IMG/VR virus record: IMGVR_UViG_2534681938_000018 | Coordinates: 1-13,524 of that record | Direction: 5' to 3' (one strand) | DNA from: a virus | Lineage: Duplodnaviria > Heunggongvirae > Uroviricota > Caudoviricetes | Length of the DNA stretch: 13,524 nucleotides | Shown here: piece by piece, positions 6,184-6,481 of the stretch | Layout of the letters: each line of letters starts with the position of its first letter | How positions within the stretch are numbered: the first letter of the stretch is position 1 | The notes under the pieces: model-generated | Database searches by the model: none | The model's input: only the letters and a program-made list of their open reading frames with translations | What the model was told of the DNA's origin: nothing | Translations under genes and position numbers: made by a program

Positions 6184-6273
6184 GCCGAATATTTTGCTGA
6201 AAAATGACGTTGGCCAACGCGGACGGATAACACGAAATCCTGCGAACTGGCAAAACCTAAGTGAATAAAAGTA

Positions 6274-6306
6274 AAAACCCCGTTTGTTGGCAGCAAGCGG
6301 GGTTTT
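6274..6306 (+). terminator. Hairpin with T-rich tail downstream of the endolysin
   Basis: AAAACCCCG (6274-6282) pairs with CGGGGTTTT (6298-6306) around a 15-nt loop, followed by GTGTTT. Confidence 0.35.
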
Positions 6307-6342
6307 GTGTTTCCTGACTTCGGAAAAGTCAAAGGAGAAAGT

Positions 6343-6480
6343 GTGTTTGATTTTAGCAAACTGATTCGGGAGATTCGAGTGATGGCTGAAAAATTATCCA
6401 CCTGGAAGTTCATCCTTATCTGGCTGGTGTTTGTGATTATGGCCTCCGGTTATTTCATCGGTCAGATACGCTGGTGGTGA
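6343..6480 (+). CDS. Small single-pass membrane protein (45 aa) between endolysin and Rz, coupled to Rz
   Basis: SD AGGAG (6333-6337) 5 nt before GTG 6343 (alternative ATG 6382); [45 protein letters not shown] contains one hydrophobic helix; stop TGA 6478-6480 lies 1 nt before the Rz ATG. Confidence 0.3.
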
Positions 6481-6481
6481 A

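Follow-up and report, generated by a model that had tools for sequence, protein, structure and literature searches.

In the sar/ant system of phage P22, a small antisense RNA encoded by the phage targets the ribosome-binding site of the downstream gene and a terminator hairpin lies between the cistrons. Classical morons consist of a promoter, a gene and a terminator and are expressed from the prophage, and exclusion morons such as HK97 gp15 sit inside late or tail operons. In lambda, the lysis genes R and Rz overlap. The promoter of SymR, an RNA of 77 nt, lies inside the coding sequence of symE (PMC1891008), sar of P22 is listed in PMC5415839, and hokW-sokW is reported to aid phage release (PMC8621323).

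The locus described here was analysed within a window of 13,524 nucleotides of a Caudoviricetes record (IMGVR_UViG_2534681938_000018). R ends at 6183 and Rz starts at 6482, leaving the 298-nt gap (6184-6481) reported in the initial annotation. The terminator-like hairpin (6274-6306) and the 45-aa open reading frame (ORF) that had been listed there as separate items of a spacer were both recovered, the hairpin covarying across genera and the ORF having a good Shine-Dalgarno sequence (SD, AAGGAG) and a stop one nucleotide before the Rz ATG; they belong to one cassette with boundaries at about 6270 and 6480. The reading developed below, to which we give slightly less than an even chance, is that a terminator, an SD-hiding hairpin, a membrane-protein gene and an antisense promoter form an accessory cassette that rides the phage late operon. 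The features of the locus are as follows.

5650-6183, plus strand: endolysin gene R, a SAR-type lysozyme (PF00959, E = 3e-25; PHROG 7), the upstream neighbour, outside the cassette.
6184-6269, plus strand: conserved 3′ flank of R, found after R in 316 phage records, outside the cassette.
6262-6344, minus strand: predicted antisense RNA acting in cis, about 80 nt long; its 5′ end is an anti-SD tail, after which come a stem-loop and a terminator with UUUUUACUUUUAUU behind it.
6274-6306, no strand assigned: hairpin 1, a bidirectional intrinsic-terminator-like stem-loop that marks the left end of the cassette.
6313-6337, plus strand: hairpin 2, covering the 5′ part of the SD AAGGAG at 6332-6337 (RNAalifold helices 2 and 3).
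6343-6480, plus strand: ORF of 45 codons, with a GTG start at 6343 and TGA at 6478-6480.
6350-6358, minus strand: predicted extended -10 promoter TGCTAAAAT, inside codons 3-6 of the ORF (GAT TTT AGC AAA).
6367-6372 and 6382-6384, plus strand: internal SD-like CGGGAG and the ATG codon of Met14 (from the codon table).
6482-7105, plus strand: Rz i-spanin ORF with its ATG start at 6482 (PF03245, PF06085), the downstream neighbour.
6702-6887: Rz1, embedded in Rz.

The N-terminus of R, which can be read directly, is AAVLALIGAGASA. Compared with E. coli E2865, the window has one additional G at 6916, which shifts the frame of Rz; the intact form is 155 aa long.

Among the described systems, SymR/symE shares with the cassette an antisense promoter, a predicted one here, within the first codons of the target and a short RNA (77 nt for SymR, about 80 nt predicted here), complementary throughout to the 5′ UTR with the ribosome-binding site and stopping at an intrinsic terminator. 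SymE, however, is a 113-aa AbrB-fold protein with a LexA-controlled promoter, whereas the gene here has no promoter and encodes a 45-aa membrane protein in late operons; the two show no sequence similarity, and the antisense RNA of the cassette is a predicted one. The architecture of P22 sar/ant is matched in that an antisense RNA, a predicted one in the cassette, faces the ribosome-binding site of an operon gene and a terminator hairpin separates the cistrons, but the P22 target is an antirepressor and the target here a small membrane protein. Against the Rfam sar model (RF00262) the SPN3UB copy of the cassette scored 19.1 bits, far below the gathering threshold of 43, and thus the cassette is no member of the sar family; sar was also absent from the matches to the window at E values up to 10.

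With the type I loci (hok/sok, hokW-sokW of Sakai Sp5, zorO-orzO) the cassette has in common a small (<60 aa) hydrophobic membrane protein with a single transmembrane segment, the product of a real gene, a 5′ leader folded so as to conceal the SD, a proposed antisense repressor, and a prophage location, some copies lying amid other toxin-antitoxin genes. It differs from them in lacking a toxin promoter and a mok-like leader ORF, in having its terminator 5′ of the ORF, and in encoding a protein without similarity to Hok, Ldr, Ibs, Zor, TisB or ShoB and without a Pfam match. Canonical type I toxins have promoters of their own and this ORF has none, which speaks against a type I logic. Like the lambdoid morons (HK97 gp15, lambda bor, lom), the cassette is extra DNA, present or absent between genes that are adjacent in related phages, and occupies several late-operon positions; the same R-Rz slot, flanked by the same sequences in Sakai Sp10, holds alternative cargo (ant and a 48-aa ORF). 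Unlike them, it consists of a terminator and a gene, with neither a sense promoter of its own upstream nor a terminator downstream, and appears built for silence in the lysogen; a terminator 3′ of the ORF is missing because the Rz ATG follows one nucleotide after the stop. Dual-start holins (lambda S105/S107, S21 68/71) likewise are small membrane-protein genes in lysis cassettes, with two in-frame starts preceded by SD-like sequences and RNA structure over the first. Their starts, however, are 2-3 codons apart and the start and possible second start of the cassette gene 13, the cassette protein has a single transmembrane helix, and its family is neither confined to lysis loci nor similar to any holin family; the prophage already encodes an S21-like holin (PHROG 20/9876).

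The ORF was examined by codon-level comparison of its homologues. dN/dS was 0.05-0.3 in its own frame, while in the other two frames it ranged from 0.3 to more than 1 and was mostly above 0.4; by this measure purifying selection acts on the ORF in no frame but its own, and the gene is real. Homologues of the same length occur in at least 12 genera of Enterobacterales, and 45-aa forms with 56-87% identity were found in Salmonella, Citrobacter, Edwardsiella, Yersinia, Izhakiella, Sodalis, Brenneria, Pantoea and Symbiopectobacterium. Across the family, length, start and stop are kept over saturated synonymous divergence and indels are multiples of three. A profile search against 1.84e9 representatives returned 40 clusters, every one of them made up of short proteins. 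The gene is annotated only as hypothetical (PGAP WP_000459345.1) and matches PHROG 6632 (‘unknown function’, E = 1e-29); searches of Pfam, NCBIfam and PADLOC gave no match to the protein, nor did any PHROG lysis family. It is left unannotated in many records, for example H-19B and many Stx phage entries. The peptide is absent from the Sakai small-gene ribosome-profiling supplements, and the literature searched contained no mention of the cassette accessions.

Residues 23-42 of the product form one hydrophobic helix, which agrees with the single transmembrane helix originally proposed, and AlphaFold2 predicted helices at 4-17 and 20-44 with a mean pLDDT of 86. According to this model, the product is an N-terminal amphipathic helix followed by one transmembrane helix and a C-terminal RWW. 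The proposed comparison with the small lysis proteins of P2-type phages was not borne out, there being no match either to these proteins or to PHROG lysis families. The SD AAGGAG (6332-6337) lies 5 nt 5′ of the GTG, and at the other end a single base (6481) separates the stop from the Rz ATG, the junction reading TGG TGG TGA A ATG. Within the ORF, an SD-like GGGAG or AAGGAG is found 8-10 nt 5′ of a nearly invariant Met14, which is kept in close homologues and in all but one of the divergent family members listed, and some genomes have a 32-aa form, either as the annotated version or by itself. The internal SD and Met14 suggest a possible second start giving a 32-aa form.

Hairpin 1 has a GC core in which 6278-6282 pairs with 6298-6302, with an A-tract to its left and a T-tract to its right. 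The terminator scan reported 15 pairs and the tail GTGTTTCC; the stem measures 9-15 pairs and is followed by UUUUGUGUUU on the plus strand and UUUUUACUUUUAUU on the minus strand. The yield of that scan was not above chance (4 sites versus 2.7 expected in a 2.5-kb stretch); the reality of the hairpin and of the ORF is nevertheless settled, since conservation and not the terminator scan alone decides it. The 106 nt around hairpin 1 fold at -32.9 kcal/mol (z = -4.1), a value that none of 200 shuffles reached, and 6 of 11 pairs covary. When the leader was folded across genera with RNAalifold, 92.8% of cells were paired compared with 45-58% in slid controls, and nine leader pairs had compensatory changes, such as CCUUG/CAAGG to CGUUA/UAACG in hairpin 2. 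Conservation of both hairpins by covariation is thus shown in the alignments, and both were also found in the most divergent family members. In a pattern-based check of 15 cleanly parsed members, the 9 nt upstream of hairpin 1 contained 5-8 A and the 9 nt downstream 5-7 T, and the distance from the end of the stem to the start codon was 38-44 nt in 14 of the 15 and 30 nt in L118. A GC stem with a U-tract on both strands fits a bidirectional intrinsic terminator. A simple lysis-operon terminator is less likely for hairpin 1 than a bidirectional one that it shares with a cis-antisense RNA, with a role as insulator besides. Since the cassette lies 5′ of essential baseplate and head genes in viable phages, SEN34 for example, hairpin 1 can be strong in the sense direction there only if polymerase is antiterminated.

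Comparison between genomic contexts defines the extent of the cassette. The copies that Yersinia and Rac-SA53 have among baseplate genes match the window only from 6274 or 6268 to 6480, and homology between contexts begins only about 10 nt upstream of hairpin 1. Sakai Sp10 aligns at 5900-6269 and again at 6479-6800, with ant and a 48-aa ORF between these blocks, so that 6269 is the point at which its homology stops. By these alignments, hairpin 1 and the ORF are one portable cassette of about 210 bp (about 6270-6480) with sharp boundaries. In the prophages of E. coli O157 Sakai the R-Rz slot is occupied by an antirepressor cassette instead; Sp6, Sp10 and Sp15 are without the cassette and Sp4 has a hybrid only, and many other phages with the same R and Rz are also without it. 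The 3′ flank of R (6184-6269) is kept in those of the 316 phage records that carry the ant cassette instead, and neither a promoter nor an RNA-family match was found when both were looked for in it. This flank follows R whatever comes next, and an sRNA made from the 3′ UTR of R with hairpin 1 as its end was rejected as an explanation.

In lysis cassettes, copies were found in E. coli, Salmonella, Citrobacter, Edwardsiella and E. fergusonii, between unrelated endolysins (SAR lysozyme, GH19 and others) and unrelated spanins (PF03245, DUF2514). The junction in which one nucleotide separates the stop from the Rz ATG recurs in Salmonella, Citrobacter and E. fergusonii, and the small membrane protein is to this extent positioned for coupling to the spanin gene, as had been supposed. 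Other copies separate a gene for the baseplate spike from one for the wedge (SEN34, Rac-SA53, Yersinia, Pantoea), or lie within a Mu-like head operon, 3′ of tail-fibre genes and amid toxin-antitoxin genes; linkage to lysis genes is therefore not consistent across the family given these non-lysis contexts. All carriers are temperate phages or prophages. The many late-operon positions in enteric temperate phages point to a mobile add-on rather than a dedicated part of the lysis machinery. Of the two roles initially offered, a lysis accessory or regulator or another moron, the second came close to the mark, while a lysis role fared poorly because the cassette also occupies non-lysis sites. Among 5,426 complete E. 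coli genomes, about 870 cover 80% or more of the stretch comprising the cassette and the adjoining ends of R and Rz, many of them more than once; the stretch is also present in Shiga-toxin phages. Between hairpin 1 and the start codon, no sense promoter was found by a promoter scan of the window, and no promoter-like TAnnnT hexamer was seen by eye in the homologues listed or aligned.

On the minus strand, the motif TGnTAnnnT was present in 20 of 21 diverse members, compared with 2.2 expected under synonymous recoding; as the 21 members are related, the nominal P of 7e-20 overstates the support. Codons 3-6 are frozen at synonymous sites as GAT, NNT, AGC and AAA, and mean pS was 0.44 in codons 2-22 and 0.82 in codons 23-45, being lower in the former in 64 of 66 pairs. 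The motif survives amino-acid change, even as a perfect TGATATAAT, the replacement of Ser AGC by Ile ATC retaining the C that gives the TG. These comparisons show an extra nucleotide-level constraint in the 5′ half of the ORF, coinciding with the minus-strand promoter motif. Part of the synonymous constraint may have other causes, namely the SD inside the ORF ahead of Met14 and the requirements of translation initiation. The -35 match is poor (TCGAAT or TCGCAA, 3 of 6 positions), and a generic promoter scan of the window left the extended -10 site at 6350-6358 unflagged. The minus-strand promoter-like site that the scanner did report, at 6465-6436, was discarded because it is not kept in homologues. 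A protein gene that the CP-1639 record places opposite the ORF, on the minus strand, was discarded too, its frame being closed in Salmonella.

With its ends placed from the promoter motif and hairpin 1, the predicted antisense RNA folds at -22.2 kcal/mol (z = -4.35) and resembles an sRNA with a terminator. We infer that this putative RNA exists and represses translation of the ORF. The Hfq-CRAC sRNA table (EcOnc) for O157 Sakai has no peak at the cassette site; since Sakai Sp4, Sp6, Sp10 and Sp15 are without an intact cassette, that set is unable to test the model. Cis-antisense RNAs are often Hfq-independent. EcOnc10-12 map 3′ of Rz and EcOnc22 to the tail region, and are unrelated to the cassette. 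At Rfam gathering thresholds the window gave no match in 6100-6560, AgvB and STnc100 being matched elsewhere only. Sub-threshold matches to the rimP leader, ctRNA, sar, OhsC and AgrB, obtained in permissive scans of the spacer and the SPN3UB copy, were driven by the terminator hairpin and were dismissed as chance.

In the proposed working of the cassette, a bidirectional terminator would be followed by the SD-hiding hairpin and the GTG-started 45-codon gene, with the opposite-strand extended -10 element in codons 3-6. Having no sense promoter of its own, the ORF would be transcribed only by late (Q-antiterminated) polymerase that passes hairpin 1, and sense expression would depend on this read-through. 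The antisense RNA of about 80 nt would start near the start codon, complement the SD and hairpin 2, and stop at hairpin 1. It would stop translation of leaky sense transcripts, so that protein would be made only once late transcripts outnumber the antisense RNA. The product would span the inner membrane once, with its amphipathic N-terminal helix in the cytoplasm and RWW in the periplasm. Because the ORF stops one nucleotide before the Rz ATG, translation of Rz/Rz1 is probably coupled to it in this prophage. Such a logic may be likened to that of a type I toxin-antitoxin pair, SymR/symE or P22 sar/ant, fitted into a moron. The weakest step, which we hold to be rather doubtful, is that the protein would perturb the inner membrane late in infection, for example tuning lysis timing. 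It is also conceivable, if unlikely, that the cassette represents an undescribed family of promoter-less type I toxin-antitoxin-like modules in which a membrane-active 45-aa, possibly 32-aa, peptide serves as a holin-triggering timer. Such modules would insert between late-operon genes of phages. Guarded by the bidirectional terminator, the SD-hiding hairpin and the cis-antisense RNA of about 80 nt, the peptide would be freed by antiterminated late transcription only; depolarisation of the membrane at a threshold would set holin triggering, and in prophages of the present kind coupling through TGA-A-ATG would also gate spanin translation.

A plainer explanation is a moron with a structured leader and without an antisense RNA, in which hairpin 1 would shield the ORF, and in this prophage also Rz, from untimely transcription arriving from upstream in the lysogen, while hairpin 2 would restrain translation. 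Such a moron accords with where the cassette begins and ends and with its being carried by some related phages but not others, as it does with the weak -35 region, the negative promoter scan and the lack of a reported sRNA at the cassette site in the Rfam scans and the Sakai Hfq-CRAC list. The frozen synonymous sites would on this account reflect translation-initiation needs and an internal start at Met14, in keeping with the SD-like sequence that precedes this residue. Selection for an AU-rich initiation region would not, however, preserve the C of AGC or ATC that gives the minus-strand TG, and the conserved A-tract 5′ of the stem would be useless to a terminator acting in the sense direction only. 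The account also leaves unexplained why a terminator is always inherited, at a fixed distance, before a promoter-less gene, and we consider it unlikely, if deserving of attention. At the opposite extreme, the ORF is short, starts with GTG and is unannotated in many records, as might be expected of a chance ORF in a non-coding spacer where the hairpin alone matters; with dN/dS well below 1 in the ORF frame only, and with length, start and stop kept in at least 12 genera and indels in threes, the likelihood of this is close to nil.

The position before Rz could itself be functional if the protein were a dedicated lysis accessory that works with the spanin, or with the pinholin and SAR endolysin, for example by modulating the spanin or the holin. 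The Rz junction is kept in E. coli, Salmonella, Citrobacter and E. fergusonii despite unrelated endolysins and spanins, and unrelated small transmembrane ORFs occupy the same pre-Rz spot (48 aa in Sakai Sp6, Sp10 and Sp15, 37 aa in Sp4, 50 aa in E. fergusonii); the possible dual start also recalls holin/antiholin pairs. An identical cassette nevertheless occurs in baseplate, head, tail-fibre and toxin-antitoxin-island contexts without an adjacent lysis gene, many phages share R and Rz without carrying it, and the protein resembles no PHROG lysis family, Pfam or NCBIfam entry. Since lysis genes are not its constant neighbours, a regulator devoted to the spanin or to lysis is the weaker reading of the cassette, and we regard it as improbable. 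A gene of benefit to the lysogen, such as a superinfection-exclusion or immunity membrane protein expressed from the prophage like the HK97 gp15 moron, would agree with a small inner-membrane protein restricted to temperate phages and prophages and situated, in the manner of known exclusion morons, within late or tail operons. The cassette is without a sense promoter, though, and its upstream terminator, occluded SD and predicted antisense RNA point to silence in the lysogen; a PADLOC match is likewise absent, and the prospects of this explanation appear slim.

A widespread cassette is thus defined whose gene has been named only ‘hypothetical protein’ and whose RNA elements are unannotated. 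Different inserts replace one another at the R-Rz junction, which makes it a cargo slot and bears on the annotation and engineering of lambdoid lysis cassettes. Were the plainer moron alone to be true, the analysis would still cleanly define a widespread moron together with the structure of its leader. If instead the cassette carries an antisense-controlled gene as proposed, it would add a new family to the few cis-antisense-controlled small membrane proteins and would represent a way for an accessory gene to ride essential late operons while remaining silent in the lysogen. In these prophages, spanin expression, and possibly lysis timing and Shiga-toxin release, would then depend on a small RNA.

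The window represents the late region of an E. coli prophage that is lambdoid and Stx-phage-like; its positions 2114-7247 share 99.7% identity with a prophage in E. coli E2865. The initial annotation, made from the sequence alone, had described between the endolysin gene R and the i-spanin gene Rz a gap with a hairpin and a 45-aa ORF that has a Shine-Dalgarno sequence (SD), a transmembrane (TM) helix and a stop next to Rz, and all of these were found where it placed them. The gap measures 298 nt, the GTG of the ORF is preceded by AAGGAG at a distance of 5 nt, and a single base separates the ORF stop from the Rz ATG.

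Features of the window
1726-1915, plus strand: STnc100, short PR'-tR' transcript family (Rfam gathering-level match, 135.8 bits)
1916-1977, minus strand: anti-sRNA AgvB (Rfam gathering-level match, 96.5 bits, perfect to the consensus)
End at 6183: R, SAR-type lysozyme (PF00959)
GTG 6343 to TGA 6478-6480: 45-codon ORF
Start at 6482: Rz (PF03245)
6702-6887: Rz1, embedded in Rz

The 86 nt directly 3′ of the R stop (6184-6269) are conserved behind R in 316 phage records, whichever of the cassette described below or an insert with the antirepressor gene ant comes next; they include a small stem, GGAUAACACGAAAUCC, and gave no Rfam family match. Relative to its near-identical E2865 counterpart, the prophage has an additional G at 6916 that shifts the Rz frame, so that the ORF extends to 7105 (207 aa, not 155), lacks an A at 9631, which shifts the frame of the terminase large subunit, and lacks a C at 3576, which splits the SASA esterase gene; these single-base indels reflect either prophage decay or sequencing errors. 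Between the DUF1327 gene and R, a 210-aa ORF on the minus strand (4887-5519; good SD AGGAGA, 7 nt, then ATG) had no Pfam or PHROG match, and the RefSeq record of E2865 leaves it unannotated; it is possibly a moron whose transcription opposes that of the late operon. At ~7200-7290 lies GGGCGGCAACCTCGCGGGTTTTCGCTATTTATGAAAATTTTCCGG, which we take to resemble the lambda cos region. In E. coli O157 Sakai, the Hfq-CRAC peaks EcOnc10-12 are antisense to the late operon and lie a few hundred nt past Rz. AgvB and STnc100 are convergent in the window, as described for O157 prophages (PMC4104026).

The 45-codon ORF is a real gene. It is WP_000459345.1, a PGAP 'hypothetical protein', in many RefSeq genomes and a 'putative bacteriophage protein' in phage CP-1639; its product matches PHROG 6632 (unknown function) with E = 1e-29 and had no match in Pfam, NCBIfam or PADLOC. 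Protein and translated-DNA searches returned homologues of the same length with 56-91% identity from E. albertii, E. fergusonii, Salmonella, Citrobacter, Trabulsiella and Edwardsiella as well as Yersinia, Izhakiella, Sodalis, Brenneria, Pantoea and Symbiopectobacterium, and an exhaustive profile search gave 40 representative clusters, all of 32-86 aa, sharing the core xSKhIRElRxMxEKLxxW(K/R)F followed by a transmembrane helix. Pairwise dN/dS was 0.05-0.3 in the annotated frame, where synonymous sites are almost saturated, and 0.3 to >1, mostly >0.4, in the two other frames. The start (GTG, TTG or ATG) is constant in position and preceded by a strong SD, and N-terminal length differences are whole codons. 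The product has one hydrophobic helix; its AlphaFold2 model comprises helices 4-17 and 20-44 (mean pLDDT 86).

The hairpin and the ORF had been taken as separate features of the spacer, but they form one unit, as homology to Salmonella and E. fergusonii starts at the hairpin and not at the ORF. Its edges were set by blastn of the window against loci in different contexts, and because of where these matches end the cassette is placed at ~6270-6480.

Limits of blastn matches to the window in four comparison loci
Yersinia similis (L096), between baseplate genes: 6274-6480 only, 82% identity
Phage Rac-SA53 (L106), between baseplate genes: 6268-6480 only, 82% identity
E. fergusonii (L008), endolysin and spanin differing from those of the window: 6266-6485
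O157 Sakai prophage Sp10 (L114), ant and an unrelated 48-aa TM ORF in the R-Rz slot: 5900-6269 and 6479-6800

The cassette occurs between endolysin and i-spanin genes irrespective of their families (SAR lysozyme, GH19, GH108-like or a fourth type for the endolysin; Rz or DUF2514 for the spanin). Salmonella phage SEN34, Rac-SA53, Yersinia and Pantoea carry it with baseplate spike and wedge genes on either side. It is also present within a Mu-like head operon, behind tail-fibre genes or other large late genes, and amid ParE, HicAB, RelB and YhaV toxin-antitoxin genes adjoining terminase. Serratia has, at the spike-wedge position, a 5′-truncated copy without the hairpin leader. The orientation is always that of the surrounding late genes. 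The cassette thus behaves as a discrete, portable, moron-like accessory unit, not as a dedicated spanin partner.

Other cargo was seen before Rz. In Sp10 (L114 5056-5771) the slot holds a phage antirepressor gene and the 48-aa TM ORF (MGWLMISDKL..., PHROG 4906, unknown function), which ends 7 nt before the Rz ATG, and the same cargo is present in Sp6 (L116) and Sp15 (L115). Sp4 (L117 6080-6460, minus strand) is a hybrid, with the R flank, both hairpins and the SD as in the window, then an 8-codon ORF and a different 37-aa TM ORF (MKGIEVETPASLDL...AIRWW, PHROG 4493) terminating TGG TGG TGA T ATG(Rz). Directly upstream of the cassette in E. fergusonii (L008 3755-3907) is a 50-aa TM ORF (PHROG 12997) ending ...WVKWW TGA T ATG, followed by what resembles a spanin-start remnant; the WW-TGA-N-ATG junction is therefore duplicated there and may mark the recombination point of cassette entry.

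A terminator scan identified the stem-loop at 6274-6306 (hairpin 1), with 15 pairs followed by GTGTTTCC, and the 106 nt around it fold at -32.9 kcal/mol (z = -4.1). Alignment of 16 diverse leaders gave two helices, the GC-rich terminator stem and a second (hairpin 2, 6313-6337) in which the U-rich tail and CCUUG pair with the SD sequence (CAAGG-GAGAA). Standard pairs fill 92.8% of cells in this structure, a share that drops to 45-58% on sliding the 3′ partners. In nine pairs both partners have changed (A-U to G-C in 8 of 16 sequences, for example, or CCUUG/CAAGG to CGUUA/UAACG), and no shuffle reached the observed covariation. The two-hairpin design extends to the most divergent members. Among 15 cleanly parsed members the 9 nt preceding the GC stem include 5-8 A and the 9 nt following it 5-7 T, and the stem ends 38-44 nt upstream of the start codon in all except L118 (30 nt); these features mark a putative bidirectional terminator whose spacing to the start codon is fixed. 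Since loci in different contexts share homology from only ~10 nt upstream of hairpin 1 onwards, and no promoter-like element was seen by eye in the leader sequences from hairpin 1 to the start codon, the cassette appears to lack a sense promoter.

In a codon table of 14 diverse members, synonymous sites are frozen at codons 3-6 (GAT, NNT, AGC, AAA), 9-12 (CGG/AGG, GAG, TTG and CGA, the last in 14/14) and 17-18, and third positions vary freely in codons 23-43. Mean pS was 0.44 for codons 2-22 versus 0.82 for codons 23-45, with the former value the smaller in 64 of 66 pairs. Read on the minus strand, codons 3-6 are TTTGCTAAAATC, matching the extended -10 promoter TGnTAAAAT, and one member has a perfect TGATATAAT. 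TGnTAnnnT was present in 20 of 21 diverse members, as against ~10% of cases (2.2 expected in total) on random synonymous recoding of the same peptides, figures whose nominal statistics overstate the support for an antisense promoter, the sequences being related. The motif is kept even where the amino acid changes, Ser (AGC) to Ile (ATC) retaining the C that gives the G of TG, a C that selection merely for AU-richness would not preserve. Constraint at the nucleotide level coincides with a candidate minus-strand promoter.

Transcription from this motif would begin at about the GTG, cross the SD and hairpin 2 in the antisense direction and terminate at hairpin 1, which has the tail UUUUUACUUUUAUU on the minus strand. 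The fold predicted for this 83-nt antisense RNA (-22.2 kcal/mol, z = -4.35) consists of an unpaired 5′ anti-SD tail, a single stem-loop and a terminator; such an RNA, ending at hairpin 1, would account for the inheritance of a terminator upstream of a promoterless gene. Such an RNA would block the ribosome-binding site, the ORF would be transcribed solely through read-through by the late, Q-modified polymerase, and protein would be made only late, when sense transcripts exceed the antisense RNA. Translation of Rz would in this prophage be coupled to the ORF through TGG TGG TGA A ATG. For the protein itself the reading we favour, with rather low confidence, is that it perturbs the membrane late in infection and so influences lysis timing.

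Against the antisense RNA, the -35 region is weak and a generic promoter scan did not call the site. Part of the synonymous constraint may, moreover, be due to an internal start: SD-like GGGAG/AAGGAG lies 8-10 nt before a nearly invariant Met14 (6367-6384 in the window, GGGAG 9 nt before), and Serratia and some annotations have the 32-aa form alone. The SD and Met14 suggest an additional 32-aa product and a possible dual-start 45-aa/32-aa gene. Codon 12, CGA in 14 of 14 diverse members, is a rare codon. Nor, without antitermination, could hairpin 1 act as a strong sense terminator ahead of baseplate or head genes that are essential. The O157 Sakai Hfq-CRAC sRNA catalogue has no peak at the cassette, but is not decisive since Sp6, Sp10 and Sp15 carry the ant insert and Sp4 the hybrid. 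A role of the ORF as a lysis accessory keeps some weight, given the Rz junction conserved across genera and the unrelated small TM ORFs (PHROG 4906, 4493, 12997) at the same pre-Rz position in other prophages.

The sar/ant architecture of P22 parallels that of the cassette. P22 sar has been named as an antisense RNA (PMC5415839), and the 77-nt SymR originates at a promoter inside the coding sequence of its target, symE (PMC1891008), a likeness to the cassette, whose own antisense RNA is predicted. The architecture equally parallels type I toxin-antitoxin loci, among them the prophage type I toxin system hokW-sokW, reported to aid phage release (PMC8621323). Rfam, Pfam and NCBIfam have no entry for the cassette, and the literature searched yielded nothing on it. 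Databases already list the ORF as a hypothetical protein; what appears to be undescribed is the cassette as a defined unit, together with its two-hairpin leader, the predicted antisense promoter and the spread over several late-operon sites. Pending transcript evidence, the cassette would be best filed with morons and with type I toxin-antitoxin/SymR-like antisense control.
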